From a virus (taxonomy: Duplodnaviria; Heunggongvirae; Uroviricota; Caudoviricetes), in the IMG/VR virus record IMGVR_UViG_2703718857_000002: a DNA stretch of 23,029 nucleotides; one strand, given 5' to 3'. Under the pieces are notes generated by a model. It made no database searches. It saw only the letters and a list, made by a program, of their open reading frames with translations, and was not told the origin of the DNA. The first letter of the stretch is position 1. The number at the start of each line of letters is the position of its first letter. The translations under genes and the position numbers were made by a program. Shown in pieces: positions 1-14,335 of the stretch.

Positions 1-549
1 TCAGCTAGCTGGAAACTTTTTATACAGAGTTGAGAGCCCTACTCCATACGTTTTTGATACGCTTTGTCGTGATTCACCGGTTGCCATCCGCTCCCCCATT
101 TCCCGCCATTGCTCATCCGTGAACTTAGGCCTGCGACCACCAACTCGCCATTTTGCCCTGGCTACGGCCAGCCCTGCTAAGGTACGTTCGCTATTAAGAT
201 CAGATTCATATTGTGCTGCGGAAAGGATGTTACGAAAGTTATAGCGGCCGCTGGCTGTTTTGAGATCCACGCCATCGGTAATACTGCGGAAGTTGATACC
301 CTTTTCCTGTAACTGCTGGAACATCAACAGCGCATGCAGAACGTTGCGGCCTATCCTGTCCAGCTTCCAGACCACCAGTTCATCCCCCGGCTGCATAGTG
401 GCGATCAGCCGTTTTAGAACCGGCCGATTCGATTTCCTCCCGCTGGCATGCTCTTCAAAAATTTTCTCACAACCCGCTGACTTGAGCGCCGTTAGTTGCA
501 ATTCAGTGTCCTGGTGGTTTGTTGATACTCGGGCATAACCGTAAATCAT
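1..549 (-). CDS. Serine recombinase of the DNA-invertase (Hin/Gin/Cin/Pin) family, 182 aa
   Basis: Complete ORF: ATG at 549..547, stop TGA at 3..1. N-terminus MIYGYARVSTNHQD carries the catalytic-serine motif of small serine recombinases; C-terminal HTH (SVSKTYGVGLSTLYKKF). AGGAGAA Shine-Dalgarno lies within the upstream palindrome. Family assignment is from established knowledge of the family. Confidence 0.9.
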   Translation of the reverse strand: MIYGYARVSTNHQDTELQLTALKSAGCEKIFEEHASGRKSNRPVLKRLIATMQPGDELVVWKLDRIGRNVLHALLMFQQLQEKGINFRSITDGVDLKTASGRYNFRNILSAAQYESDLNSERTLAGLAVARAKWRVGGRRPKFTDEQWREMGERMATGESRQSVSKTYGVGLSTLYKKFPAS

Positions 550-554
550 GAGTG

Positions 555-581
555 CTTCTCCTGTTGTAAAAACAGGAGAAG
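555..581. promoter_or_regulatory. 27-bp perfect inverted repeat directly 5' of the invertase start codon
   Basis: Arms CTTCTCCTGTT and AACAGGAGAAG are exact reverse complements around a GTAAA centre. The arm nearest the gene contains the invertase Shine-Dalgarno. Function (operator, RBS-sequestering hairpin, or recombination site) is not determinable from sequence. Confidence 0.5.
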
Positions 582-740
582 AGGCGAAATATCACCTGAT
601 TCAGAAAAATATTTGAAAGGTTGGTTTGGGAGAAGCGGCAAAACGGGATGTGGGAACAGGGGAAAATCAGATACCGGATATGGCTTTTTTTGCCAGTGGT
701 GATGGATGGATGAAATTACCCAACGGTAAAATCCTGCAAT

Positions 741-977
741 ATGGTCGAGGTGCGGTTACGCCGCCGAGGTATCGATACAATTGTGTTATGTGGGATCTCG
801 ACCAATATCGGTGTTGAATCCACCGCCCGCAATGCCTGGGAACTTGGCTTTAATCTGGTGATTGCCGAAGACGCCTGTAGTGCCGCCAGCGCCGAGCAAC
901 ACAATAACAGCATTAATCATATCTACCCGCGCATCGCCCGTGTGCGTAGCGTGGAAGAGATCCTTCACGCGTTATGA
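741..977 (+). pseudogene. 3' fragment of an isochorismatase-family hydrolase gene (yecD-like), about 78 codons
   Basis: Translation ...[39 protein letters not shown]... matches the conserved Cys-containing core of isochorismatase-like hydrolases. In-frame homology begins only around nt 744 (stop in frame at 711..713); upstream sequence is in a different frame and unrelated, so the gene is 5'-truncated or frameshifted. Confidence 0.6.
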
Positions 978-1078
978 TTTACATCGGTCTGCCGCAATGG
1001 TCGCATCCTAAATGGGTGCGGTTGGGGATCACCAGCCTTGAAGAGTATGCCCGTCACTTTAACTGCGTGACGCGGTAA
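974..1078 (+). pseudogene. 5' fragment (34 codons) of a DUF72-family gene (yecE-like)
   Basis: ATG at 974 overlaps the TGA of the preceding fragment (ATGA), the arrangement expected for adjacent host genes. Translation [32 protein letters not shown] then terminates after 2 more codons; a full DUF72 protein is several-fold longer. Family identification is from memory and unverified. Confidence 0.5.
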
Positions 1079-1241
1079 ATTTAAAAATCGACAAATATCG
1101 TCCAGGAGCGCCATTTTTAATGGCTGGAGATAGCAACCAATATGCGTTGTTTGCAATATTTGGCGAATTTTACCGATTTCTCATGCCCCACCCATGCCCC
1201 AAGACACCTGCCACGCGAAATCTTCCATCAATTGACTGCAA

Positions 1242-1559
1242 CTAAACAACCGCATTGTCCTGGCGCACATCGCAGATAGTAAACGTCACGACGCCGATGA
1301 CAGTAACATCGTCCAGGGCTTCGCCCTCGATCGCTTCACCATCTTCAGTAATCAGTGACTTTCCTCTCAGCGTGGCAAGCTCCGTCCCGCCGCCGTGCTG
1401 TATAAGTAGTTGGCTACCCTGCTTTGGCTTCAGGGAGATATCCAGTACAACGTAACCACCAGATCGCTCGAAAACTAGCGTGTTTGGGCCGACATTGCAG
1501 ATCGAGTTAACAGACAACCTTTGCTCAACGTAGTCCGTCGCTGGTGAAGGGAATCCCAT
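1242..1559 (-). CDS. Hypothetical protein, 105 aa; distal gene of a LexA-box-controlled two-gene operon
   Basis: ATG at 1559..1557 overlaps the TAA of the upstream gene by 1 nt (TAATG); GGAGGG Shine-Dalgarno upstream. Translation MGFPSPATDYVEQRLSVNSICNV... with no family I can recognise. Confidence 0.55.
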   Translation of the reverse strand: MGFPSPATDYVEQRLSVNSICNVGPNTLVFERSGGYVVLDISLKPKQGSQLLIQHGGGTELATLRGKSLITEDGEAIEGEALDDVTVIGVVTFTICDVRQDNAVV

Positions 1560-1798
1560 TAGATCACCCTCCCCATGTTGGCCATCATCCACAAACGGTT
1601 TTCGCTATGGTCGGTGGTTTTGTCGACAAAGTACGTCTGCTCTCTAGATATCCACGCATTAGCCTCTGCGTCGGTAAAGTGCAGCCCACGCCGGCGCAGC
1701 GCTGACACAAAATCCTTTGTGTGCAGGTACTGGTAGCCTTTGGAGTTGCGCAATACCGACTCGCGGAAAGCCGCGGCGATGTCTGACTGTCGAAGCAT
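1559..1798 (-). CDS. Hypothetical protein, 79 aa; proximal gene of a LexA-box-controlled operon
   Basis: ATG at 1798..1796 preceded by GGAGGG at about -8; the GTG at 1819 used in the ORF track lies inside the LexA box and is less likely. Translation MLRQSDIAAAFRESVLRNSKGYQYLHTKDF...; no family recognised. Confidence 0.6.
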   Translation of the reverse strand: MLRQSDIAAAFRESVLRNSKGYQYLHTKDFVSALRRRGLHFTDAEANAWISREQTYFVDKTTDHSENRLWMMANMGRVI

Positions 1799-1816
1799 GA
1801 TCTGCCCTCCGATAAA

Positions 1817-1836
1817 CACTGTTTTTATATACAGTA
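1817..1836. promoter_or_regulatory. LexA (SOS) box CACTGTTTTTATATACAGTA
   Basis: CTGT-N8-ACAG with an AT-rich spacer; 17 of 20 positions match the enterobacterial consensus TACTGTATATATATACAGTA. Sits about 20 bp upstream of the 79-aa gene start, overlapping the likely -10 region. Confidence 0.7.
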
Positions 1837-1905
1837 GTTTTAAGTGAGCGGCAGATCAATGCTGGTTGTGGCTATCAATCCCTGCGTCAGTAGCAAACTA
1901 TTGTT

Positions 1906-2709
1906 TTAGCTATAGCGCCCATTAACCAGGTTGATGTCATCTGAAAGAATCTCTAAGGCATTTTTACTTGTTAGCGTCAGGTCATCTAATCGACCGCGAT
2001 ACACTCCACCATTCACCGAGAGTGATGTCGTTGTTATTTCAGCATCCCCCAGCCGCGCCAGAGTAATTGCTGCAGGATAAGCAACAATCGCTGAGAATGA
2101 GCTCTCATACTTCAGTACGCCATCAAGGTAGAGGCGCGATTTCTGCATTGTTCCATCAGAAGAAACTACGCGCTCAACAGCAACCTGGTGGACATTCCCA
2201 TCAAAAAGCCCTGACAGGAATGAGTACGCATTAATCACCTCTCCGTGGTTAATCACCTGCAATGCGCTCGCGGCAGTTGTTGAAGAGAATGTCGGGCGCA
2301 GCCAAAACAGCGTGTTCGCTGCGTTACTGGGTGTGCCATTTGTCAGAGCCACCAGGAATGAGTTGGAAGTAGCAGCAGCAGCACCTGTTACTTTCAGCCA
2401 GAACGTATACAGATAATTTGTCATCCCTGATGTGGCAATCATTGATGCCGGGAGATTAATTCCCTGCGCATGAACTGAGTTCAGTTCGTACCCATTACCA
2501 GCTGCTGTCAGATCAGAGTTAGCTGTCGCGTTGTCGTCGACATAGCACATGTTTTTGATTTGCGCACCAGCAACGAGGTCTGCCCCCGCGCCAGACCATG
2601 TGTTATGGAATGAAATTAACCCCTTCGTCCCACTATTAATCGAGCCATCACGATAAAGAATATCGCCAGTTGCGACAATTACATCATTTCGTTTCTCAAA
2701 CGGACCCAT
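1906..2709 (-). CDS. Lectin-like (concanavalin A / LamG-like) protein, 267 aa
   Basis: ATG at 2709..2707 lies 1 nt after the stop of the upstream 709-aa gene, indicating coupling. Motifs ...LFDGNVHQVAVERVVSSDGTMQKSRLYLDGVL... resemble the beta-sandwich core of LamG/ConA-like domains; domain call is by pattern only. Confidence 0.55.
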   Translation of the reverse strand: MGPFEKRNDVIVATGDILYRDGSINSGTKGLISFHNTWSGAGADLVAGAQIKNMCYVDDNATANSDLTAAGNGYELNSVHAQGINLPASMIATSGMTNYLYTFWLKVTGAAAATSNSFLVALTNGTPSNAANTLFWLRPTFSSTTAASALQVINHGEVINAYSFLSGLFDGNVHQVAVERVVSSDGTMQKSRLYLDGVLKYESSFSAIVAYPAAITLARLGDAEITTTSLSVNGGVYRGRLDDLTLTSKNALEILSDDINLVNGRYS

Positions 2710-2710
2710 T

Positions 2711-4840
2711 TTACACCCACCCTAATAATTGAAATTTCTGGTAAATAAATTCAGCGTTTACGTCCGCGCCAGCCTGCAATGCATATTCAGGGGCGTTAGA
2801 TGTTTCTTTCGATTGGCTAGGATGCAGTCCGTCATACTTCAATGAAGTTGGAGGGATATCATTTCCAAAGTCAGAAACGTCCTGAGAATATGCTGGATTA
2901 TAGTTGTTTACGAAGTTTTCTCTCATATCAACACTATCAATTTCGCACCATAACTCAGGGTATTTCTTTTTAATCATGCTGTTTGATAACATGACGTTTG
3001 CATAACCTGCTGATCCACGGGGCTCAACACTGCTGTTAAAATCAGGCAGGATAATAACCTTCTGCCCAAGAGATTTAAGGTATTCAACTACACCAATAGT
3101 GTCGCTGAGAACCTGCATTGACTGGCTAATATTATTCCTTCCCATCCAGAAAATATTTATACATTCAGGGTGAAGAGGGAAAGATGTTCCTGCCGGAATT
3201 CCTCCGGTAATAGCACCAGTGGTCACCGGATCGCAAATGAATGGCACGGCAACAGGCACGTTAACCGCATCACCAGATGCATCACGTGTGAATGTGGCAT
3301 TAGTTCCATCCCATGAAAAATTGCCTGGAATGCCAGCCAGAGAACCGTGGAACGGCGTCGATGCTGCGGCGTTGGCAAAATAACTCAGTGGCCCCGGGTT
3401 TGCCGGAGAAAGAGTTACCGAACCGCTGGCAGGAATGCTGCCGCCAACTGGAACGTAATACGCTCTGCGCCCACCCTGAGCAGCAGCTGTGCCAACGCTT
3501 GTGCGTGAGCTTTTGCCAAAGTTATAGGCCGTGTAGCCGGTTAGCTCCTGCAGGTGTGTCAGCATACGGGGGTTATCAACCATTGAATGGCCCCACCCGC
3601 AAATGATCGGCCTGGACATTACAGAGTGCTCAGTCAGATCATTGATATAGCAATAATACTGCCCACCCGGTGCGCGATTAGTCTCCCTGTCCGATTGCCA
3701 GATAACCTTATCACCATCAACGCGTGGCAAGGTTTCATTACTGGATGTATTGGTTACACGAACCTGCTGACCTGTATCGCGATCAAACAGGAAAATCTGC
3801 TCATAGCCTTCTTTCTCTTCGCTAAATGCAATGTAATCAGGCTGACCTGAATTTGTCAGGTCCGATGATTTCAGCGACTCGATAACAACCAGGTTTTCAG
3901 ATGTGGATGCAGAAATGTATCCACTATCTGCATACTCATCAGGTGAGAGAAACGTTACTGACTCTGGAAGAGGTGATAATGCGTCAGTAACACCCTTTAC
4001 CTCTGTAAAATCGCTTCCTTCAATTACCGCATCGCCAACAACAATTTTGCTAAAATAAATGGTGGTGCCTTTAATGCCAACAATAATTCTATTGTTTTCA
4101 GAAAAAGTTGCTGAGTCATACCCTGAATCCGAAAATTCAGATATATCGACAAAAGTCGAAGCCTGTAAAAAAGGAACGATTCCAAGAAGGCTCTGCCCGG
4201 AAATTAAAATGTCGTTTCCTGAAAGGATTTCAGCAGCGAATTGATCTGCGCTGATTTCCCCCGCTCTGATTTTTTGGAAAAACCACTCGACACCTTTCCT
4301 GGATAGTAGTATTTTTTTATTTTCATCTAGTATAGCCTCTTCCACCCCAGAATCTTTATATTCATCAGGAGGAAAGAACTCTGACGCCTGTGTTATATTT
4401 AACAAAGGAGAGTAGGGATCAATAGCATCATCTACATACTTCTTAGATGGCATTTTTCTACCGGTGGGCTCAAGAGTGCCACCATTGTTAATTACTTCAA
4501 TAGCCAGCGCGCTATCGTCAGGGCTGCGGTAATACGTGGTAGAACCCACCGGGATATTCGCTATATCCGCCTGCGCCGCTGCCAGCGTCATGTATTGCCG
4601 GCTGAGAGGGATCAGGTTTTGGCGGGCTTCATCAATAACAGCGTCGGTAGCAGCTGCCATTTTTTTAGTAGCCCCAATTATCGTATCCCGGGCGTTACCA
4701 AAACGATCTATAAAAGTATCGCTTTCGCTGTTCAGGAAATCATCGTACGCCAGGGCGTTATCATTCAGATCCTTCATGCTATTTGAAGGTCTTGGATTGC
4801 CGGTATTATATCTTTTGTCCATACCTGTTCCTGTCTTCAT
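2711..4840 (-). CDS. Large protein (about 709 aa) with internal beta-rich repeats and a C-terminal SGNH/GDSL-like hydrolase motif set; putative receptor-binding esterase
   Basis: Long ORF; preferred start ATG 4840 or 4822 (the latter has AGGAACAGG upstream), since the first ATG at 4891 has no RBS. Residues about 165-400 hold at least 4 repeats with recurring (S/P)xDEYxDSGY...SEN. The C-terminal half has GHSM, FGKSS, GRNN and DGLHP in the order of SGNH blocks I, II, III and V. No signal peptide. Confidence 0.6.
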   Translation of the reverse strand: MKTGTGMDKRYNTGNPRPSNSMKDLNDNALAYDDFLNSESDTFIDRFGNARDTIIGATKKMAAATDAVIDEARQNLIPLSRQYMTLAAAQADIANIPVGSTTYYRSPDDSALAIEVINNGGTLEPTGRKMPSKKYVDDAIDPYSPLLNITQASEFFPPDEYKDSGVEEAILDENKKILLSRKGVEWFFQKIRAGEISADQFAAEILSGNDILISGQSLLGIVPFLQASTFVDISEFSDSGYDSATFSENNRIIVGIKGTTIYFSKIVVGDAVIEGSDFTEVKGVTDALSPLPESVTFLSPDEYADSGYISASTSENLVVIESLKSSDLTNSGQPDYIAFSEEKEGYEQIFLFDRDTGQQVRVTNTSSNETLPRVDGDKVIWQSDRETNRAPGGQYYCYINDLTEHSVMSRPIICGWGHSMVDNPRMLTHLQELTGYTAYNFGKSSRTSVGTAAAQGGRRAYYVPVGGSIPASGSVTLSPANPGPLSYFANAAASTPFHGSLAGIPGNFSWDGTNATFTRDASGDAVNVPVAVPFICDPVTTGAITGGIPAGTSFPLHPECINIFWMGRNNISQSMQVLSDTIGVVEYLKSLGQKVIILPDFNSSVEPRGSAGYANVMLSNSMIKKKYPELWCEIDSVDMRENFVNNYNPAYSQDVSDFGNDIPPTSLKYDGLHPSQSKETSNAPEYALQAGADVNAEFIYQKFQLLGWV

Positions 4841-4862
4841 CTTTTCAATGAAGCAATTAAGA

Positions 4863-4891
4863 TTGACGACCCGCCCCTTCAGGGCTAACAT
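4863..4891 (+). promoter_or_regulatory. Candidate sigma70 promoter for the regulator/acyltransferase operon
   Basis: TTGACG (4863..4868), 17-bp spacer, TAACAT (4886..4891), about 30 bp upstream of the ATG at 4924. The spacer contains a small GCCC...GGGC inverted repeat. Read by eye, not scored. Confidence 0.35.
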
Positions 4892-4923
4892 CGCCTTACG
4901 TGTTTAAACGGTTAAGTAAGAGA

Positions 4924-5187
4924 ATGATTTTAATAAATAAATACACTCCTCCAACGCAGGAAGATTTAGCCAGACTGAAATCCGCAATAAACTACTCCGG
5001 AAACCAAATGGCAGGGCTCGCAGGTGTAGCCAGCGATAGCCAATGGCGGAAATACACTGGCGGAGAGAGCCCCAGGGTAATGTCAAGACACATACTGTTT
5101 TATATTGCAGCTCAGCTTGTTCTGTCTGATGAGCAACTTAACAATGTAATAAATAAAATGCGCGATATTGGCGCGGAGATAAAATAA
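4924..5187 (+). CDS. Small XRE-type helix-turn-helix protein, 87 aa; putative regulator of the downstream acyltransferase
   Basis: ATG at 4924 with AAGAG-type Shine-Dalgarno (the ORF track starts at GTG 4900). Segment ...GNQMAGLAGVASDSQWRKYTGGESPRVMSRHILFYIAAQL... fits an XRE-like HTH pattern. Its stop overlaps the acyltransferase ATG (TAATG). Confidence 0.55.
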   Translation: MILINKYTPPTQEDLARLKSAINYSGNQMAGLAGVASDSQWRKYTGGESPRVMSRHILFYIAAQLVLSDEQLNNVINKMRDIGAEIK

Positions 5188-6278
5188 TGCTTGGCCTAAT
5201 AAGGTTTTTTTTGGCATCGTGCGTCATTGCTTTTCACTTAACGGCTCGCATACCTGCACTTGGCAACTTTGCAGTGAATTGCTTCTATGTTATCAGTGGT
5301 TTTTTAATAACATACATTTTGCATGAAACATACAAGTTCAACTTCTCTATGTTTTGGAAAAATAGAATACTGAGGTTATTCCCGGCATATATATTTTTTC
5401 TCGTCATGGGCTTTCTTATTATAAAATTAATTCCATCCGCAAAGGAATTCCACTCAAACTGGACAGGCAATTTCTTACCTGGAGATTTATTAGGAAACCT
5501 CTTAATCTTCCCCTGGGCTTTCCTTTCTGATAATGCTGTAGCAAATCCATTCGGTGCCTTTTCATCCATTTATCACTTTGCTATTGATGGTAATAGATTC
5601 AGAATAGTCACATCATCATGGTCAGTGGGTGTTGAGATAACATGTTATTTTTTATTGTGGCTTTTCATAGCCCGAAATAAATTTACAGCCATTACGTCGA
5701 TTCTGCTTTCACTGCTTTATCATGCTTACGTATATGTAGTACACCATTCTTTTGATATGGCGTATTTCCCATTCCTTGCTGCAACACTTCCTTTTAGCAT
5801 GGGTTCTCTGGGTTATTTTGCCCATAGAAAGTTCAAAGCTATGTATCTTTCTCCACACAAAGCTTTTTTAATAACATTTATTTGCATCGGGATTTTTATT
5901 ACCAATTGGTATTTATATACAATTAATGCATTAGGTCAGTACAACATAATACTTTACTACACCAATAATGTAATAGCATTGTTTACAACCCTGGTATTAT
6001 TAAAAATAAAGACAAACATACATCTTGAGAAAATACTCAAGTGGTTTGGTGACCTGGCCTATCCAATTTTTCTTTGTCAATATTTTGGTGGATTTCTAGC
6101 ATGGCTTGCTATTGGTGGTGAAAATCGTGGCTTATCCATCTTTTTATTAGGCTACCCAATATCAATTGCACTTGGGATCGTTTGTGTAATATTAATAGAC
6201 AAGCCACTAATTAAAATTAGAGCAAAAATAAGGGCGGACGCTCAAAGCAAAAATAATCAGGAAAACTCTTCAAGGTAA
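5187..6278 (+). CDS. Acyltransferase family 3 (AT3) integral membrane protein, 363 aa; probable O-antigen/LPS O-acetyltransferase (Oac/OafA-like)
   Basis: N-terminal His in the first hydrophobic segment (...VIAFHLTARIPALG...) and the VNCFYVISGFLIT motif typical of AT3 acyltransferases; multiple hydrophobic segments throughout. Gene body is visibly AT-rich, roughly one-third G+C by eye. The LPS substrate is inferred from the prophage tail-fibre context. Confidence 0.8.
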   Translation: MLGLIRFFLASCVIAFHLTARIPALGNFAVNCFYVISGFLITYILHETYKFNFSMFWKNRILRLFPAYIFFLVMGFLIIKLIPSAKEFHSNWTGNFLPGDLLGNLLIFPWAFLSDNAVANPFGAFSSIYHFAIDGNRFRIVTSSWSVGVEITCYFLLWLFIARNKFTAITSILLSLLYHAYVYVVHHSFDMAYFPFLAATLPFSMGSLGYFAHRKFKAMYLSPHKAFLITFICIGIFITNWYLYTINALGQYNIILYYTNNVIALFTTLVLLKIKTNIHLEKILKWFGDLAYPIFLCQYFGGFLAWLAIGGENRGLSIFLLGYPISIALGIVCVILIDKPLIKIRAKIRADAQSKNNQENSSR

Positions 6279-7042
6279 ACTAAACCATTCGCTCCTTTTC
6301 CTGATGAATAGTTACCATTCCCCCCGGCACCACCTGAGCCGGGGAAACCGCCATCATCGCCAGAACTACCGAAGTGGCCATTGCCACCCGTTGATGAAAA
6401 TGCAGATCCTCCAGCCCCGCCAATAAAAGCATCAGAACCATAATACAGACCACCTTGAGATATTCCGCCAGTAATATTTAAAATGTTCCCGCCACTTCCG
6501 ATACCTCCAGCAGGAACTGTAGCCCCGCCACCACTCCCTCCAGTAGCTGAGATTAAACTCCCGAACCTTGTATCACCACCATTCCCACCTTTAGACGAGA
6601 CACCAGCAGCAACAGCACTGCCACCAGTACCTATCGTCACAGATATAGTTTCGTTATCAGAAATATTAAATAACCCTTCCGAAAATCCACCAGCACAACC
6701 TCCAGATGCGCCCACACTAACTGGAGCATTCTGGCCACCTCCCCCCGCTCCCCAAACTTTCACCCGCACTCTTTTCGTCCCTTTAGTTGGAGTGTAAGTC
6801 CCTGACTTAGTAAAGGTGACAATATTAAGCAGGCGACCGCCACCAATCGCTTTAAGAACCTGTGAATCATCATCAGGATCAAGCTCAAGCCCCGCGCCCT
6901 CAACAACGTTTACCAGCTCACGCTGAAAGGTATTCATCATCTCAGCATTAATTATTGTCGGTGAAATACCATTAGCGACATTACCATTAGTGTATTCACC
7001 ATTAGCATCAGCGGTGTCAGTTGTACTGCCAACTTTTCTCAT
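6257..7042 (-). CDS. Glycine-rich tail fibre protein, 261 aa
   Basis: ATG at 7042..7040 with AAGAAGG Shine-Dalgarno. Lies immediately downstream of the gp48-like gene, where Mu-type fibres sit. N-terminal region ...ISPTIINAEMMNTFQRELVNVVEGAGLELD... is followed by a GGxGG-rich low-complexity C-terminal half. Its 3' end overlaps the acyltransferase 3' end by 22 bp (convergent). Confidence 0.7.
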   Translation of the reverse strand: MRKVGSTTDTADANGEYTNGNVANGISPTIINAEMMNTFQRELVNVVEGAGLELDPDDDSQVLKAIGGGRLLNIVTFTKSGTYTPTKGTKRVRVKVWGAGGGGQNAPVSVGASGGCAGGFSEGLFNISDNETISVTIGTGGSAVAAGVSSKGGNGGDTRFGSLISATGGSGGGATVPAGGIGSGGNILNITGGISQGGLYYGSDAFIGGAGGSAFSSTGGNGHFGSSGDDGGFPGSGGAGGNGNYSSGKGANGLVYLEEFS

Positions 7043-7068
7043 ATAAACCTTCTTTTTAAATGTCTGAA

Positions 7069-7743
7069 TTAAACGTAACCAGAAGCGATATCAAATATTC
7101 TGGCAAACTCAGGCGTGACTTCGTAAACCCCCTCATCGTTAAAACCGAAATAGATATAGCCGAATTTGACCAGGGTGTATGAGGGGGCGAGGGCATTAAT
7201 CCGGCATTCAAGCTGACGATTACCCCAGGAACGTAATGGATCGCCACAATAACTCAGACCTGCACGGGCATAAGTTATCGTTGTGTCTTCCGCCTCTACC
7301 AGCCAGACAAATGGCCAGTCATCCCCATTTAGCCCGTCACCACATACCGATAAGCCAGCACGCGCCTGCCGGTATTCCTTAATCGAAATCGTATAACCCA
7401 TTGCTGCGGCAATACTGATGAAATAGCTCTTTGACTGCCCGCCGGTACTGATGAGTTTCGATACAATGGCAGACTGACGCTTCGCAATCGTATCCACTTC
7501 GCCAATCGAGCAATCATCAGGTAAGCCGAGTGTTTTTTCCCACTCGGTGAGCATAATCGTCGCAGTTTTTGGAAAGGCACCGCGCAGCAATGCAAGTGCG
7601 TCGTTATCACTACGCTGGAAACTGGCCGCAATGGCCCGCAGCACAGCAGCCTGAACAGCTTTTGGATCCCGTGTCCACGCTCGGCCGGTGGGGATAAGCG
7701 CCTGCAGTGCCTTCTGATAATCGTCTGTTGAGAAAAGGCTCAT
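7069..7743 (-). CDS. Baseplate protein, DUF2313 / Mu gp48-like (YmfQ-like), 224 aa
   Basis: N-terminus MSLFSTDDYQKALQALIPTGRAWTRDP...TEWEKTLGLPDDC matches the conserved start of Mu gp48-family proteins. ATGA overlap with the upstream J-like gene. Confidence 0.75.
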   Translation of the reverse strand: MSLFSTDDYQKALQALIPTGRAWTRDPKAVQAAVLRAIAASFQRSDNDALALLRGAFPKTATIMLTEWEKTLGLPDDCSIGEVDTIAKRQSAIVSKLISTGGQSKSYFISIAAAMGYTISIKEYRQARAGLSVCGDGLNGDDWPFVWLVEAEDTTITYARAGLSYCGDPLRSWGNRQLECRINALAPSYTLVKFGYIYFGFNDEGVYEVTPEFARIFDIASGYV

Positions 7744-8888
7744 GTGTAGTTCACCTCGCCACGAACAGCCAGCTCCCCAACTCCCGGCTCAATATTCGCA
7801 GAAGGCGACACAAGGATATAACCTGAAGTACCGGCAACATCCCCTATCGCGCGGTTGAGATCTGAAAGGTAAATTTTCCCTGTGCCGAGCGGGTTAGCAG
7901 ATTCAAACAATACCCCGTCAATCGCATCAGCAATGGCCGCAGTCGTTGCGCTGTCGGCATCAGATATCCCGCTTATTTCAAAATCGATAACGCGTTCGAT
8001 GGGAGAGCAGACATAGTTAAGGGAGGTAACCGGCGCAAGCGGATACATATAATCGGCAACTCTCCCCTGATCCCCGGTGGCTTTTACAGCCCCCCACTCT
8101 TCCAGTTGAGAGACACCGTCAGTTCCTGCAGGGAATCCATGATTGGTTTTATCATCGCCGTCGCACATGATGTAAATCACCACGGTACCCGGCCCCATCC
8201 CCCGGCGCCGTATCCATGCCCTGGTGATCCCCGACACGGATAAAGCCCAGCTTTTATAATCAGTGTCACTCCCGCCCTGCGGGGGATTCTGATACGCCAG
8301 CAGACCACGTAATCGGAAATCCTCTTCACTTTCAATGTTGGCGCCGCCGGTGGCGGGCTCAATCAGCGTAACCGAGCTGTCTATGCCGGGGGCATTAGCA
8401 TCCAGTGTAAGAATGGTGCCAGCATCGGCATTTCCGGAAGCGCCTCCTCCTGTCACATCGTCTGTGATATCCGGCAAAACCGCTGTTACAGCAACCGACG
8501 CACTGCCAGCAGTGTTTATCGTTATGGCATCATCGGTTGTGTACTGGTAACCATCATCACGGTTTAACACCGCCCCTTTTGACAGTGTTTTCCCCGGCGT
8601 TCCGGTAACGGTCGCCGCCGGAGAGCGTGCTGCCGTTGCGGCTTTTCGGTAAATCTGCTTTAGCGCCATCCATCCGGCAAGCCACTCATCGGTAGAGGTG
8701 AAAGGCGTGCTCTGACGGGCAATATAATCCAGGTAGGCGTAGTGCAGATGGGCCATGCCCGCATCCATATCAGCGAGCACCTTAAGGTTGCCAAACCGTA
8801 ACAGCGCGCCAACACTTTCAAGCTCTGCCTGCATAAACTGGCGATTCTCCTGCCGGAGCTCGCTCAGTGTTTTCCGCTTAAATGGCAT
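7740..8888 (-). CDS. Baseplate J-like protein (Mu gp47 / P2 gpJ family), 382 aa
   Basis: Size, position between the gp46-like and gp48-like genes, and overall sequence character fit the baseplate J family. Overlapping start/stop on both sides indicates a coupled operon. Confidence 0.75.
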   Translation of the reverse strand: MPFKRKTLSELRQENRQFMQAELESVGALLRFGNLKVLADMDAGMAHLHYAYLDYIARQSTPFTSTDEWLAGWMALKQIYRKAATAARSPAATVTGTPGKTLSKGAVLNRDDGYQYTTDDAITINTAGSASVAVTAVLPDITDDVTGGGASGNADAGTILTLDANAPGIDSSVTLIEPATGGANIESEEDFRLRGLLAYQNPPQGGSDTDYKSWALSVSGITRAWIRRRGMGPGTVVIYIMCDGDDKTNHGFPAGTDGVSQLEEWGAVKATGDQGRVADYMYPLAPVTSLNYVCSPIERVIDFEISGISDADSATTAAIADAIDGVLFESANPLGTGKIYLSDLNRAIGDVAGTSGYILVSPSANIEPGVGELAVRGEVNYT

Positions 8889-9327
8889 TATTCAGTTGCT
8901 CCCATAGCCAGAAGAATTTGAACTCCTGCCAGTCCCCCGCCGGCGGCAAATACCGGATGATGAGGTTCAGCCTATTCGGGAAAACAATCTCTGACTGAGC
9001 CTCTATCGCTGCTGCAATACCATCCGACTTCATCCAGGCCAGAGCCTCTTCGGCATAATCTTCAGCTCTCATCGCCACTTCGCGCGTCAGTTTTTCACGC
9101 CGCAGTAGCCACAGCCTTGAGCCAATATTCCGGTCGTTGTCCAGATCCCCCCACCAGCCGCGGCGGTCAGTTCCTTCATAATCATCATCAGCGCGCGCCA
9201 GTCCGTCAGTAAACAAACTGATAATTATGGCCGTGTGCATATCATTCTCAGATGTCAGTACGCCGTTACCGGTTTGCCAGTCAGCATGAATGGCATCCAC
9301 ATCCCAGAATGAGGAAATATCACTCAT
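8878..9327 (-). CDS. Baseplate protein, Mu gp46-like (GP46 family), 149 aa
   Basis: Size and position between the spike and J-like genes; 4-bp overlap with the spike gene. Family call by synteny plus pattern. Confidence 0.65.
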   Translation of the reverse strand: MSDISSFWDVDAIHADWQTGNGVLTSENDMHTAIIISLFTDGLARADDDYEGTDRRGWWGDLDNDRNIGSRLWLLRREKLTREVAMRAEDYAEEALAWMKSDGIAAAIEAQSEIVFPNRLNLIIRYLPPAGDWQEFKFFWLWEQLNNAI

Positions 9328-9905
9328 ACCTGACTCTCTGTTTTTTCGCTTATGATCGTGCTATCGCCGGACTGAACTTTTTTAACGTCATGGTCATGAT
9401 CGTTGTGAGCATCCCGCAGCGCTTTGAGCGTTGAATTGTTCGTCTCGCAGTTATCGATGATGTCACCCGTCACCAGGAGTTTGGGGGTAACCAGCTTTAC
9501 CTGTTCCGTTGCCGTCGCGGTGATGTTTCTGGCATTATTGATCTCTACATCTTTGCCTTTCGCATCAATGAAAATTCCCTCCTCGGTCAGATGAATATTC
9601 ATCCCCTGCTGGTTATAGACCACGGTTTCGCCTGGCTTAAGCCCGGTATACCGGAAGCTTTGATGGTTAGAGGCAATGACGACAGGACTGGAGCGGTCCC
9701 CGCCGAGAAAGGCAATAAGCACATCCGATCCCGCCGGTAACCCCGATGAAAAACCAAAATCAGAGAGCCGTGGGGCGCTGGCCACTTCCAGCGGAGTCTG
9801 GTACTGGATTTCCTGCACAACCCCGCTATCTTTCTGCGTGGTAATACGGCCAATGCCCAGCATGCCGGCGATGCGCGTGGCCGATTTCTTTAAATTTTGA
9901 TTCAT
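9324..9905 (-). CDS. Baseplate central spike / assembly protein V (Mu gp45 / P2 gpV-like), 193 aa
   Basis: Size, synteny, and a C-terminal His-rich motif HNDHDHD (nt 9387..9407) of the kind that coordinates metal at the tip of contractile-tail spikes. Confidence 0.7.
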   Translation of the reverse strand: MNQNLKKSATRIAGMLGIGRITTQKDSGVVQEIQYQTPLEVASAPRLSDFGFSSGLPAGSDVLIAFLGGDRSSPVVIASNHQSFRYTGLKPGETVVYNQQGMNIHLTEEGIFIDAKGKDVEINNARNITATATEQVKLVTPKLLVTGDIIDNCETNNSTLKALRDAHNDHDHDVKKVQSGDSTIISEKTESQV

Positions 9906-10777
9906 TGGTTTAGTCCGGGTATTTGCTGGTAGAAAGCATAAGGCTGGACAGCGAAAGCCTCCGGGGGCATCAGATAAAGGCGCGCATGGGTGCCGTCACT
10001 GTCTCTGATATAAGTCACCTCTGCGATAAGCAATTCGGTGTCAGGCAGCTGCAGACTCGGGATGTTGACCGGGATAAGCGTATTCGGCTCCCATAATTTC
10101 CCGGATTTATCGCGCCAGGAATCAATCGTCACCGTTAACTGACGGGAACGGCCGTATCGGCGGTTCATCTCCCAGTCAATCGCTCGCTGAGCCTGTTGTG
10201 AAGCCATCAGTGTACTTTCAACAATAATGATCCGTTTTCGGTAACGCATACTGGCCGCCTCAGGATCGCGGGCCGTCGCCAGCGTCACCGAATCATAAGC
10301 CGTATCTGGCGAGAATCCTGCAATCGGCGAAATGCTCATCGATACGCCGACGTAATCAGAAAAGCGGTCAGCCATCGAACGGCGGTAATAAGCCTGTTCG
10401 ATATTTACCCCTTCTGCGATACCGCTGGCCGCGCGCTTTGTCCCCACCCGGGTCAGAAATAAGTTACCGTCAGGCTGATCGTAATAAAGCAATGCCGACC
10501 AGCGGGAGACACGATCAAGTATTTCCTGTGGCGATTCCCCCCAGTTCAGGGAAAATTGCGGAACTTTCACCAGATCATCAACGTCTGTACTTACGCCAAT
10601 GTTGTAATGGGATGCGAGGCGGGAGGCTATATCAAGCGCATTACTGTTATTGATGACGTTATTTGGCCATTCAGCAGAGCAATCAACGAGATCTGCGCAC
10701 TTACTGCGGCCTGAGGCTCTGACTTCATGGCGCGAACGGGAAATAGCAGGCGACCAGTCATCAACATACCCCGTCAC
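9902..10777 (-). pseudogene. 5'-truncated baseplate hub gene (Mu gp44 / P2 gpD family), 291 codons retained
   Basis: Frame opens at a GTG at 10777 that overlaps the portal stop codon in a different frame. C-terminal region ...LLIAEVTYIRDSDGTHARLYLMPPEAF resembles the conserved end of gpD-family proteins. Full-length homologues are about 380 aa (from memory), implying loss of roughly 90 N-terminal residues. Confidence 0.5.
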
Positions 10778-11931
10778 TACCAGGTACCGGATGAGAAATT
10801 ACGCAATACTGCAGACTCGAAAACCTCAAAGTTGCTGTAAGGGCGGGCAGCGTTGACCGTTGTTATTCTCTCCCCTGGATAAAGGATCGGCATACGGGCG
10901 CCATTCTGCAGCGTCAAACGGCGATCATTATGAAACTCTGCACGACCATCCTGGTATGCTCCCAATCCCTCTTCGAAGTTTTCCCCCAGCGCGGACTGGA
11001 TCATTTCGGGATCGTATGGAGACTCAATATACGCGGCGAAGATAGCATTCAGAATTGCTGCTTCCAGCTCGCTCTGGTCGTACTTCACCAGCATCTTCAG
11101 ACGTTGCACTACTGGAGTCAGAATGCCATTCCCCCGATGCTGAGCTCCACGCTCATGGTCAAAGTCGTGCACAACGTGCGGGCGCCCCCATGCGGTTTCG
11201 CGCGGGATTCGTCGCCATGTCATTGTTTTGGCGCCACTCCACCAGTCACCGATATGTGCTTCACGTATGTGATAAGCCACAGGTGCGCCGTCAGCATCAA
11301 TTTCAACGCCGCCGCGGATATTCGGCATATCAAAATTCTGCTGCGGGTTACTGAGTCTGTCGGGATCAACAACCTGCACCGTCGTGGCATAACGCCCCTT
11401 ACCTGGTCCAAGGCGATCGGTGCGATACTGAAGCACCATCAGGGCATCGCCATCAATCAGCTTGTGGCGAAAGGCCAGACGCAACATTTGTGGAACGGTT
11501 AGCTTGCGCTCAACGTCACAATAACGGCCTGTGTCGTATGCCCAGGTTCTCCAGTGGGAAGCGAGTGCTTTTCCGTACTCTTCCGCCCATACTGCGTCAA
11601 AACTTTTATTACCTGTCATCATCCGTAATACACGATAGTCAGGCTTCATGATCGGACGGAAATTGGCGCCGACCGCATTATCAAGCAGGCGAGTTATGGC
11701 ACCATTGGCCCATCCATCATTTCGGACCAGATCCCGCGCACGGGAAACTATACGGTCACGGTAGATATTAATTTCGTTATCCGGTGACCATAGTGCGGGC
11801 TGCCAGTTCGCCAGTTGATCGCTGAAGGAATCCGCGGCGTCATATGGCACCCGGCTACCGCCCGTCAACATGCTGGGTTTTGGTGCCTGATAAGGTCTCC
11901 CGTCAGGACCAAGGATTTGCACTTTATTCAT
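10777..11931 (-). pseudogene. 3'-truncated portal gene (lambda gpB family), 384 codons retained
   Basis: N-terminus MNKVQILGPDGRPY, the VERKLT motif and ...AILNAIFAAYIES... parallel lambda gpB; the ORF stops at ...NFEVFESAVLRNFSSGTW, where lambda-family portals continue for about 140 more residues (from memory). Start overlaps the gpW-like stop by 1 nt. Confidence 0.65.
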
Positions 11932-12194
11932 CAGAATCTGAACCTCACTGGCTTCCGTGGCCGGGCGACAATTCCCAGTTGCGCCTGCAGCAACTGAATC
12001 AGCGCCAGCAGGTCGGCGAGAGAGCTTTGCTGATAGGAGACAGAGCGCGTCCCATCACCCTGCGTATAGGAGAATGAGACGCCACGGCTGCCGGTAGTCA
12101 GGTCGATATAAGCCTGCTGCGCTTTCTGCAGAGCGTCTCTGAGCTGCTCATCAGTCATCCCACCAGCAAGTAAGCTCGTGTTTCGGTTAAACAT
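11931..12194 (-). CDS. Head-tail joining protein, lambda gpW-like, 87 aa
   Basis: Small ORF between terminase large subunit and portal, the lambda Nu1-A-W-B order. Translation ...LRDALQKAQQAYIDLTTGSRGVSFSYTQGDGTRSVSY... resembles gpW. Confidence 0.7.
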   Translation of the reverse strand: MFNRNTSLLAGGMTDEQLRDALQKAQQAYIDLTTGSRGVSFSYTQGDGTRSVSYQQSSLADLLALIQLLQAQLGIVARPRKPVRFRF

Positions 12195-12202
12195 GGTTTT
12201 CC

Positions 12203-14335
12203 TTATTGCGGCAGGAGTTTAGAAATGTTCTTACGCTTAACAGGAGCCATAGCCTCATCCACGATGGCACCCGGTAATTCGTAATTGATTTTTTCTTCTG
12301 GCTCGGCTGGCGCCGGCAGGAACTTATCGGGATCGGCCTGAAGGTTAGCGGCCCGAACATTGAGTTTTAATCCCATATGTTTCAGCCCACACAACGCGGC
12401 ATAGCTGTAAACGAGGCAGTCGAGTGCTTCGTTCGCCCGTCCGGGGATAGGCTCCCAGACACTGAATCGCTGACCGGCCACCACTTTATAAACCAGTCGC
12501 TCGGCCAGCAGCTGGTTGAAATATCCGAGGTCACGATCATCCGGGAAGTGCATATAGCCCGCACCGGCAGTACCTAAAGCTGGCGGTTCAAGATGCAGAC
12601 GACCACGGACAACATCTTTCGCAGAGTTCACGCCAAGTATAATTGGCCTGAAGCTGGCTTTACTTTTCGATGTCGGTCGCTTGGTTGGCCAGACGGGGTT
12701 GCGTTTCCCACCCTGCGCAGATTCGCCCTTGATAGCCCAGACGCGGCGCCCAAGGCGATCTTTGCAGAACTCATAAACCTTTTGCGTGTGGTGACCGCCG
12801 GAGTCCATACATGCAGCCAGAATATTCAGCCCTCGCCCGTCGCCGCGTCGCCATATCTGTTTCAGGTACGCATCGAGGCGCTTCCAGGGTTCCTCAGTCT
12901 CCAGATCGCCATAAATGACGTCATGCGCAACTGACCACGATTCCTCGTCCCGCCCCCAGCCAGTGATCGTGATTTCGAATCGGTCATCCTGGGTATCGAC
13001 GCCCGCAGTTAACAATGCCACGCCATCAGGAACGACGGCCGGGAAGACTTCACGGCGCGCCAGCAGGACATCAACCGGGAGCTGTTTCCCGTGGTTAGGC
13101 CGGTGCGGCAACCCCATCTGGGTGTTCCACCAGGCCTGTTCCTTATCCGGATCCCCTTTCGCATCGAGGTATTTCTTTGCAATGTCCGATGGCTTATCTT
13201 TTTGCCAGGGACTGAAGAGTTTTGACGCCTGGTACCCGGCGTGGTGATTATCCAGCGCCTCGGCCCCGCAGTCCGGGCAAATCGCCCGGTATACGGCATG
13301 CCGTTCCGACTCTGACCAGCGCCAGACGGCATCAACACTGCCCTCGTCTCCTTCATGCCATTTCTGGTCGTATTCCATTAATGGTGAATGGCGGGAACCA
13401 CAACATTCAAACGGTTTGGTCTGATGCCAGCGGATTGTCTGTAATGCCCGCAGACGCTCACCCTCTGACCAGCCAGCACCACAACATTCACAATGGATCA
13501 TGGCCGCTTTGGTCAGGTGCTTATCACCTTCTTTTGGCCATTGAACATGTTTGAAGAAATCAAGGAACTGTCGGTGCCCGCAATGGGGGCAAACTACAGA
13601 GGCCCGCCGCTGATCTGAATCTTCGTAACTGTCAGCAATCCGGCTTTCATCTTCGACCGTCGGCGAACAAGCCCGCACGGACAGCCAGTTAAGGCCAAAT
13701 GTGGCGGTTCGCTCTTCCGCCAGAGCGATGGGATCGCCCTCACGGGTAATCGGATATTTATCCACCTCATCTGCCAGCAGAACACGGATCGGACGGCGCG
13801 CAAGGTTATCTGGACTACCGGCGCCGGCCAGCGCCAGAAATCCGCCGGTGAAAGCTTTATACAGAATGGTTTCTTTTGAACTCTTCTGCTTTGAGTCACC
13901 TATGATGTTACGCAGAACTGGCGTTACCCTAACCAGCGGGCTGATGCGTTCTTTGGAAAACTGCTCAGCGGCCTCTTCCTTCGGCTGCAGGAGCAAAATC
14001 GGACATGGGTCGAGGTGCGCAAAATAACCAAACAGGTTTTCCAGCAGCGCGGTTTTCATTAACTGGGTACAGCACATCACGGTGATAATGTGGACGCCCG
14101 ATTCCGTCGCGGCCAGCATAGGACCGCGGGCAATTTCAACCGTTGATGTTTCCCAGTTCCCGGAGGTACTGCCAGCTTCTTTCGCCAGCTTCCGGTAGTC
14201 ATCGGCCCATTGCGGGACGCTGATCCGCGGCGGCGGTGTCCACCCTTTCCGGACACTCAGTTGAAGACGCTCAATCTTCCGCTGGGTTAAACTCTGGTTC
14301 TCCGAGGACTGAGATATGTTTGTGGACATGTTCAA
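12203..14335 (-). CDS. Terminase large subunit (lambda GpA family), 710 aa
   Basis: Long ORF with cysteine-rich zinc-finger-like cluster (CPHCGH...CECCGAGW...CPDCG) and overall resemblance to GpA-type terminases. Immediately downstream of and overlapping the Nu1-like gene. Confidence 0.85.
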   Translation of the reverse strand: MNMSTNISQSSENQSLTQRKIERLQLSVRKGWTPPPRISVPQWADDYRKLAKEAGSTSGNWETSTVEIARGPMLAATESGVHIITVMCCTQLMKTALLENLFGYFAHLDPCPILLLQPKEEAAEQFSKERISPLVRVTPVLRNIIGDSKQKSSKETILYKAFTGGFLALAGAGSPDNLARRPIRVLLADEVDKYPITREGDPIALAEERTATFGLNWLSVRACSPTVEDESRIADSYEDSDQRRASVVCPHCGHRQFLDFFKHVQWPKEGDKHLTKAAMIHCECCGAGWSEGERLRALQTIRWHQTKPFECCGSRHSPLMEYDQKWHEGDEGSVDAVWRWSESERHAVYRAICPDCGAEALDNHHAGYQASKLFSPWQKDKPSDIAKKYLDAKGDPDKEQAWWNTQMGLPHRPNHGKQLPVDVLLARREVFPAVVPDGVALLTAGVDTQDDRFEITITGWGRDEESWSVAHDVIYGDLETEEPWKRLDAYLKQIWRRGDGRGLNILAACMDSGGHHTQKVYEFCKDRLGRRVWAIKGESAQGGKRNPVWPTKRPTSKSKASFRPIILGVNSAKDVVRGRLHLEPPALGTAGAGYMHFPDDRDLGYFNQLLAERLVYKVVAGQRFSVWEPIPGRANEALDCLVYSYAALCGLKHMGLKLNVRAANLQADPDKFLPAPAEPEEKINYELPGAIVDEAMAPVKRKNISKLLPQ

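Follow-up and report, generated by a model that had tools for sequence, protein, structure and literature searches.

AT3-only O-antigen acetylases are known in phages, Oac of Sf6 being an example, and they alter phage adsorption in lysogens (PMC9558356). The oac gene of Sf6 lies convergent to the tailspike gene and possesses its own promoter and terminator, and an AT3-only O-antigen acetylase convergent to a tailspike gene is a textbook arrangement. The mechanism of deacetylase tailspikes has been demonstrated for gp63.1 of Escherichia coli phage G7C and gp55 of Pectobacterium phage PP99. In Klebsiella prophages SGNH is the most prevalent domain of receptor-binding proteins (RBPs) (PMC13123978), the esterase role of such proteins is supported by assays with p-nitrophenyl acetate (pNP-acetate), and a 2026 study of these prophages in PLoS Biology already discussed how specificity between phage and host, and among phages, has acetyltransferases on one side and SGNH RBPs on the other. 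The DNA analyzed here, a stretch of 23,029 nucleotides (nt) from a virus of the Caudoviricetes (IMG/VR record IMGVR_UViG_2703718857_000002; hereafter the window), carries genes of both kinds next to each other: an AT3-only membrane O-acyltransferase of 363 amino acids (aa; 5187-6278, plus strand) and a tailspike-like RBP of 703-709 aa (2711-4822/4840, minus strand), the latter followed by a 267-aa ConA/LamG-like protein (1906-2709, minus strand).

A first-pass annotation had interpreted these three open reading frames (ORFs) as an unusual acylation/de-acylation system. The ORFs are real, and RefSeq annotates the same three genes (1906-2709, 2711-4840 and 5187-6278) in identical E. coli loci; the unusual system was not supported, given the modular co-occurrence of its components and the fact that AT3 acetylases and esterase tailspikes are already well documented. 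We rather consider, with a probability of roughly 0.7, that two independent and separately mobile phage modules are placed next to each other, where the tail-gene operon has its distal end. One would be a host-range cassette composed of the RBP and its obligate LamG-like partner, with the N-terminal anchor fixing the RBP to the tail, and the other a lysogenic-conversion moron composed of a putative regulator of 87 aa and the AT3-only inner-membrane acyltransferase. This reading builds on what was observed, namely which genes are present, which domains they encode, how the catalytic residues are conserved and how the genes are linked.

Linkage of the acyltransferase, the receptor-binding protein and the tail fibre

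The block formed by the tail fibre, the AT3 gene, the 87-aa ORF and the RBP anchor was present in 32 of 5,426 complete E. coli genomes, at 98-100% identity, and just three of the 32 harbored the RBP head found in the window. The AT3, which is 98.6-100% identical in these E. coli loci, stands beside at least eight different RBP C-termini, among which SGNH domains of the epsilon15 type and of the GDSL_2 type, SASA acetylesterases, CotH, a beta-helix and two heads of unknown type, and every head is followed by a partner gene of its own. The module of RBP and 267-aa protein recurs, 94-95% identical, in an AT3-less prophage at tRNA-Arg/intS in three assemblies of strain ST540. In the IMG/VR loci, an AT3 was located within 8 kb in 5 out of 58 cases with an epsilon15-type SGNH RBP vs. 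9 out of 17 cases sharing only the anchor (Fisher p = 2e-4, the loci not being independent). Co-occurrence (3/32 E. coli genomes, 5/58 IMG/VR loci) thus goes against the dedicated pair that had been proposed, and the AT3 and the esterase RBP are most likely neighbours.

Other prophages of Enterobacterales have AT3 homologues of 44-65% identity at this site, where they converge with the last tail-fibre gene. The backbones include Mu-like baseplates, an unrelated Phage_Wedge1-type baseplate (L019/L020) and a lambda-like GpJ tail (L025), and several of these prophages have no tailspike beyond the AT3. The copies at 48-65% identity, plus a Klebsiella copy, retain the 87-aa ORF. AT3 genes of other kinds were also encountered close to RBPs. 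In L104 an AT3-family ORF of 631 aa, the size of an AT3-SGNH fusion (5821-7716, minus strand), is immediately upstream of a further epsilon15-type SGNH RBP (8001-8891, plus strand) and divergently oriented, and in L038 and L039 a 342-aa AT3 is placed about 1 kb downstream of the LamG-like partner gene of the RBP. Occasionally, therefore, AT3 morons of unrelated lineages do turn up beside esterase RBPs.

The gene that does follow the RBP is that of its neighbour. In 55 of the 58 loci of the epsilon15 type, a member of the 267-aa family starts within a few nt of the RBP stop codon, and the remaining three are contig ends; in the window the distance is 1 nt, so that the downstream coupling pointed out by the first-pass annotation was correct. 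It is the esterase RBP that forms a true, obligate pair with the LamG-like protein.

The AT3 has a different companion, namely the 261-aa tail fibre encoded by the last gene of the Mu-like baseplate operon (6257-7042, minus strand), a glycine-rich protein matching Pfam Gly_rich_2 (PF21722, E 1.3e-9) and PHROG tail fibre families. The two genes converge and their 3' ends overlap by 22 nt (6257-6278); a similar convergent overlap occurs in L019, L026 and L030 (65, 53, and 44% AT3 identity, respectively), and not in the Klebsiella loci L021/L022. Klebsiella L022 shares positions 4446-5383 (88%) and 6772-10785 (98.8%) with the window and lacks the block in between (5384-6771), which corresponds to the AT3 from about codon 66 and the C-terminal two thirds of the fibre. 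In L019 the 87-aa ORF, the AT3 and the fibre C-terminus (4999-6839 of the window, 68% identity) are found on an unrelated backbone. The AT3 is inherited with the glycine-rich fibre tip, not with the esterase RBP. Taken together, the linkage of the RBP to the LamG-like protein and that of the AT3 to the fibre tip therefore delineate two exchange cassettes that reassort independently.

Given this joint exchange of AT3 and fibre tip, the AT3 may be directed at the receptor of the fibre. The AT3 would then acylate the glycan bound by the fibre tip, providing a self-exclusion of the type of Sf6 Oac and its tailspike, while the esterase RBP would be directed to another polymer. This is a tentative possibility, to which the exchange of AT3 and fibre C-terminus as one block between E. 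coli and Klebsiella, their joint presence on the L019 backbone, the convergent overlaps of 3' ends and the observation that AT3 homologues always abut the last fibre gene are favorable. The same linkage may nonetheless just reflect a preferred site of moron insertion at the end of the late operon, and at 53-55% AT3 identity the neighbouring fibre differs in type (Caudo_TAP/Gp53-like, Peptidase_S74).

A second alternative is that the AT3 installs an acyl group at the same glycan position that the virion esterase recognizes or removes, either as a shield whose key is carried by the phage lineage or according to a receptor-destroying logic that keeps virions from getting caught on lysogens and debris. 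O-acyl groups of surface polysaccharides are plausible targets of both enzymes, the two genes are about 350 bp apart, and 27 of the 32 AT3-bearing E. coli prophages possess an esterase-type RBP, belonging to three different SGNH/SASA lineages. A distant epsilon15-type RBP with its partner also adjoins this AT3 (L014), the 631-aa AT3 of L104 stands directly upstream of another such RBP, and an interplay of acetylation and deacetylation has already been raised for Klebsiella prophages. We nevertheless judge this alternative unlikely. The AT3 is nearly constant while the specificity domains of the RBPs vary, with the non-esterases CotH and beta-helix among them; the same RBP is present in AT3-less prophages; 53 of the 58 loci with this type of RBP have no AT3 nearby; the AT3 swaps with the fibre tip instead; and esterase RBPs are common with or without an AT3 (PMC13123978). 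As to the last point, esterase RBPs were present in 4 of 6 AT3-less cases in E. coli (Fisher p = 0.30) and in at least 3 of 6 anchor-sharing viral loci without AT3, the samples being small and not independent. An enrichment of esterase RBPs among AT3-bearing prophages was considered and discarded, being indistinguishable from this base rate (p = 0.30).

In a more specific version, the AT3 would acylate a widely conserved surface glycan of the lysogen and thereby block competing phages, and the esterase RBPs, which dominate the lineage, would strip the same group so that its own virions still penetrate hosts that related prophages have shielded. Were this quite improbable scenario true, the locus would represent a phage-encoded write/erase arms-race module based on surface glycans, and the finding that both enzymes hit the same acyl group would be direct evidence of glycan acetylation as a phage-versus-phage battleground. 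The present evidence argues against a dedicated coupling of AT3 and esterase.

Some points weigh against the two-module reading, too. The prevalence of esterase-type RBPs (27/32) would be compatible, too, with a less strict functional connection of acylation to de-acylation. Transcription of the RBP gene would have to proceed across the opposing AT3 cassette, and the scans for promoters and terminators reported below did not rise above chance. The middle region of the RBP was poorly modelled by AlphaFold, and no paper in the literature collection searched assigns an esterase activity to the epsilon15-type domain, for which structures have been deposited. Moreover, enzymatic activities, substrates, virion association and expression are features that we infer.

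The receptor-binding protein and its partner

The RBP gene has three candidate start codons, at 4891, 4840 and 4822, the last of which is adopted by PGAP and results in 703 aa. The protein, of which 2260 homologues were retrieved, matches tail fibre families of PHROG as well as phrog_19652, and in tblastn searches the tailspikes of PEAT2, JZBo1, Gungnir39 and epsilon15. Its N-terminal anchor (aa ~1-140; 4421-4840, minus strand) is 50-94% identical to the N-termini of many phage and prophage RBPs with unrelated C-termini, among which the members of PHROG families 9750, 3257, 14987 and 31290. In a comparison of RBPs with unrelated C-termini the anchor was 78-94% identical, and it is the constant portion in at least eight types of RBP, with recombination breakpoints at about 4439-4534 of the window. 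The C-terminal domain is common to the annotated tailspikes of epsilon15, SW16-7, JZBo1 and Gungnir39. The RBP displays no signal peptide and no hydrophobic or transmembrane segment, the maximum Kyte-Doolittle score of a 19-mer being 1.33, and that of the N-terminal region -0.21. These features make up the standard design of an anchor carrying an exchangeable, putatively enzymatic head, and the protein is presumably associated with the virion.

The SGNH hydrolase domain covers aa ~411-709 (2714-3610, minus strand), and the motifs noticed at the C-terminus by the first-pass annotation were confirmed. In 32 homologues sharing 37-88% identity, the blocks G417-H-S419, N440-F441-G442, G567-R568-N569-N570 and D670-x-L672-H673 (blocks I, II, III, and V, respectively) show no variation or are conserved to at least 90%, with S419 (nt 3584-3586), G442, N569/N570, D670 and H673 (nt 2822-2824) as the predicted catalytic residues. 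An AlphaFold2 (AF2) model built on the alignment of these 32 homologues was confident for residues ~410-709, with a predicted local distance difference test (pLDDT) score of 80-93, and when compared with the PDB by Foldseek this part matched PAF acetylhydrolase as well as the GDSL-like lipases/acylhydrolases 4iyj, 4hf7 and 4rw0 (the latter with probability 1.0 and a template modelling (TM) score on the target of 0.64-0.68). A beta-rich insertion of about 100 residues separates block II of the domain from block III. Residues 414-708 align with PDB entries 9sij/9sim (E 1.6e-47; profile E 4e-99), which were recognized as the C-terminal domain of the epsilon15 tailspike through a tblastn search with the aligned chain; phmmer and profile hmmsearch against all PDB chains yielded solely this tailspike, weak TolB matches and marginal PAF-AH matches. 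The domain is probably a polysaccharide-deacetylating esterase, as judged from its residues and predicted fold, and the assignment of a tail-associated SGNH esterase, as a component, appears well founded on account of the RBP anchor and the tailspike homology of the C-terminus.

One or two PD40/TolB-like repeats are located in the middle region of the protein, around residues 300-400, and the RefSeq name 'TolB family protein' goes back to these. Membership of the TolB family was rejected, since TIGR02800 scored 26 bits vs. a cutoff of 343, solely residues ~301-386 matched, and the Foldseek TM score to TolB was 0.16.

The C-terminal domain of the epsilon15 tailspike (AY150271, 22363-23220) keeps all the SGNH motifs, i.e., GHS, block II, GGRN and D-N-L-H. 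The host of epsilon15 is Salmonella of group E1, where the AT3 protein WbaK O-acetylates the galactose of the O-antigen; according to reports the prophage turns this acetylation off. Considering the conserved motifs together with the acetylation of the host O-antigen, the endorhamnosidase tailspike may double as a deacetylase, a role that no paper in the literature collection searched ascribes to it, and the present comparison suggests that its C-terminal domain is itself an esterase.

The 267-aa protein matches phrog_19357 and lacks a signal peptide. An exhaustive HMMER search recovered 48 representatives of its family, all stand-alone proteins of ~260-290 aa. The profile of the family (40 members) matched the LamG-like structure 4qvs in the PDB (E 2e-8 over 200 positions), and 7 of the 40 members matched PF13385 (best E 3e-5); 'lectin-like', as the protein had been called, is therefore reasonable at the level of the family. 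The protein of the window taken on its own gave no direct match in Pfam or the PDB, and its AF2 model, from a two-sequence alignment, had a pLDDT of 33. The LamG-like protein may be either a folding/assembly factor (chaperone) or a distal lectin-like subunit of the RBP. In the Klebsiella loci L021/L022 the partner of the RBP (3151-4065, minus strand) is a protein of 304 aa matching PF09206, the family of the alpha-L-arabinofuranosidase B catalytic domain, followed by a truncated resolvase.

In terms of the two-module reading, the SGNH domain (Ser419/Asp670/His673, with Gly442/Asn569 forming the oxyanion hole) would hydrolyze O-acyl esters, most likely O-acetyl groups, of the surface polysaccharide during adsorption, by analogy with the esterase tailspikes G7C gp63.1 and PP99 gp55, and the LamG-like protein, translationally coupled to the RBP, would act as its assembly factor or distal subunit.

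Among the relatives, L058 (IMGVR_UViG_646311937_000002) harbors, within 7938-14209, two complete sets of esterase RBP and LamG-like partner in mirror orientation, bounded by inverted repeats of 116 nt (7938-8053 and 13481-13596) that are 92% complementary, with an invertase behind the sets that is 46% identical to that of the window. Going by this organization, L058 looks like an invertible host-range switch similar to the Mu G segment, built from whole esterase RBP genes. In L055, L061 and L063 a second partner gene is present on the opposite strand.

Non-structural cargo had been proposed as an alternative, in which case the 709-aa and 267-aa proteins would not be virion parts but accessory enzymes, such as a secreted esterase and a lectin, belonging to a fitness cassette with the AT3. 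RefSeq names indicate no phage function, and a prophage remnant of ~15 kb in two complete E. coli genomes keeps the AT3, RBP and 267-aa genes intact despite a truncated baseplate J. The proposal is very improbable, since it conflicts with the N-terminal phage-RBP anchor, whose 140 residues are common to many tail fibre and tailspike proteins, with a C-terminal domain that is that of the epsilon15, JZBo1 and Gungnir39 tailspikes, with the absence of export signals, and with the organization of relatives that hold two sets of RBP and partner in an invertible segment flanked by an invertase, like the S/U genes of Mu.

Lastly, a split acetyltransferase of the OafA/OatA type, in which the AT3 carries the acyl group across the membrane and a separate SGNH protein transfers it in the periplasm as in PatA/PatB (a likeness was also drawn to the reported WecH-PatB cross-talk), could be suspected because the two genes adjoin, fusions of AT3 with SGNH are well known and the transfer of acetate from an AT3-only protein to a soluble SGNH protein is possible (PMC9558356), but we reject it, as the SGNH protein has no export signal or hydrophobic segment, begins with a phage RBP anchor and is not co-inherited with the AT3, and AT3-only O-antigen acetylases such as Sf6 Oac work alone (PMC9558356).

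The acyltransferase unit and the surrounding locus

The identification of an AT3-only protein by the first-pass annotation was borne out by the match to PF01757 (57.9 bits vs. a cutoff of 31, E 1.2e-15) over residues 4-336 of 363, by the match to phrog_3333 'O-acetyltransferase', and by multiple hydrophobic 19-mers with a maximum Kyte-Doolittle score of 2.56. The protein ends after the AT3 domain, with no C-terminal SGNH fusion. R/K-X10-H in the first transmembrane segment and RXXR in the first cytoplasmic loop are functionally essential motifs of AT3 proteins (PMC9558356); here they correspond to R6-X10-H17, in which R6 and H17 are at least 90% conserved, and to R60-x-x-R63, in which both arginines are invariant, in an alignment of 26 sequences including Sf6 Oac. 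The G+C content of the gene is 35% as compared to 50% for the window, and tblastn against sequenced phages retrieved just a match in a Vibrio phage at 28% identity and a few fragments.

The AT3 and RBP genes were previously described as divergent from a shared intergenic region of roughly 80 bp. The distance between the two starts (4840 to 5187) is in fact 346 bp and is occupied by a conserved ORF of 87 aa that had been missed (4924-5187, plus strand; phrog_20491, E 1e-29), separated from the RBP start by a gap of ~83 nt. It begins with ATG at 4924, an alternative listing from GTG at 4900 giving 95 aa, and its stop codon overlaps the AT3 start by 1 nt. In every E. coli locus the ORF precedes the AT3 with a conservation of 94-100%; next to AT3 homologues sharing 48-65% identity its conservation is 71%, and in Klebsiella a 98% identical copy accompanies an AT3 of just 49% identity. 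The 87-aa ORF and the AT3 are a two-gene unit. One RefSeq record calls the former a 'transcriptional regulator' and the Klebsiella copy showed a weak match to HTH_31 (E 0.04), hence it is possibly a small helix-turn-helix (HTH) regulator whose translation is coupled to that of the AT3.

Upstream of the 87-aa ORF, a sigma-70-like sequence, TTGACG-17-TAACAT (4863-4891, plus strand), is by its match to the consensus only a candidate for the promoter of the unit. Scans of 1700-7200 for promoters and terminators returned counts at the expectation from shuffled sequences, and claims on expression therefore stay inferential. According to the two-module reading, the unit would be transcribed in the lysogen from its own promoter, opposite to the late genes, and the AT3 would, in the manner of Sf6 Oac, acylate a surface glycan of the lysogen, with altered adsorption of this or competing phages as a consequence.

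The window comprises the tail end of a temperate E. coli phage or prophage with a Mu-like baseplate. A Pfam scan located Mu gp48/YmfQ at 7069-7743, and RefSeq copies of the same locus also hold gp46, gp47 (baseplate J), gp45, gp44-like and DNA-circularisation proteins. Proceeding leftwards, the baseplate genes on the minus strand are followed by the glycine-rich fibre, then by the 87-aa ORF and AT3 on the plus strand, and then by the RBP and the 267-aa protein on the minus strand. Beyond these, an 86-aa ORF (phrog_3893) and an overlapping UmuD-like ORF (phrog_3469) share 1242-1819 on the minus strand, the latter encoding an S24 peptidase-like protein of 116 aa if counted from GTG at 1592 and of 105 aa in RefSeq. 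This pair recurs at prophage ends beside RBP modules, and also beside AT3 homologues with no tailspike (L025-L027, L021/L022, L002, L004). A 3' fragment of the host gene yecD (isochorismatase) is situated at 741-977, and a Pin-type invertase of the Pin/Gin family at 1-549, which with its flank (1-1109) is 97-99% identical to phages mEp237 and phi80. When positions 1-8000 were compared with sequenced phages by megablast, matches were limited to the invertase and the UmuD-like flank. Long inverted repeats were absent from positions 1-7200 and no gix-like site or core occurred in the window; the invertase therefore seems orphaned here.

The exact module of the window occurs in three complete E. 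coli genomes, and in two of them (L001, NZ_CM148361.1; L031, NZ_CP144710.1) the prophage is a remnant of ~15 kb between yciI/tonB and kch, near the phi80 attachment region, with baseplate J truncated and the AT3, RBP and LamG-like genes intact. An intact copy of the prophage, identical to the window along that stretch, is contained in the IMG/VR contig UViG_2541047941_000003.

Comparison with known systems

All the elements of the locus are of known kinds: AT3-only phage acetylases, esterase tailspikes and modular exchange of RBPs. What is new is a distinct lineage of SGNH RBPs, typified by the epsilon15 C-terminal domain and obligately accompanied by a LamG-like protein, and a moron of the 87-aa ORF and AT3 that is tied to a glycine-rich fibre tip. 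The locus thus represents a tidy case of modular host-range evolution in temperate enterobacterial phages, and the RefSeq 'TolB family protein' can be corrected to a probable polysaccharide-deacetylating RBP.

With Sf6 Oac the acyltransferase has in common the AT3-only architecture, the RXXR region, the location at a prophage end, convergent to a distal receptor-binding gene, and a presumed promoter of its own. It conforms to the moron layout of Sf6 oac in lying beside an RBP gene, opposite to the late genes, and in its atypical composition. The similarity to Sf6 Oac is, however, restricted to a local stretch (36% over 44 residues), the 87-aa ORF coupled upstream is a feature of the window, and the RBP genes beside it encode a glycine-rich fibre and a putative esterase rather than an endorhamnosidase. 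The AT3 domain of OafA and OatA carries the same R-X10-H and RXXR motifs (PMC9558356), but no SGNH domain is fused to the AT3 of the window, and the adjacent SGNH protein is a phage RBP made in the cytoplasm with no export signal and not co-inherited with it.

The RBP resembles the described esterase tailspikes in joining an N-terminal anchor to intact SGNH residues, from which processive deacetylation of O-antigen or capsule, with no depolymerisation, would be expected. It nonetheless belongs to another SGNH lineage, as gp63.1 was not matched in the sequence and profile searches of the PDB, and differs from the tailspikes of the G7C type in its insertion of ~100 residues, its PD40-like repeats and the LamG-like partner always found behind it. 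The epsilon15 tailspike gp20 shares the GHS, block II, GRN and D-x-L-H motifs; there the domain follows the beta-helix endorhamnosidase of a podovirus tailspike, while in the window the prophage has a Mu-like baseplate and the domain comes after a different anchor and a region resembling a propeller.

The constant anchor, exchangeable C-terminus, tightly coupled downstream partner and nearby Pin/Gin-family invertase recall the S-U genes of the Mu G segment, and the position of the LamG-like gene relative to the RBP mirrors that of U relative to S. Unlike the Mu G and e14 P segments, the window contains one set and has neither inverted repeats nor a gix-like site, and in contrast to S-U its partner is LamG-like instead of a Caudo_TAP chaperone and its RBP is predicted to be enzymatic.

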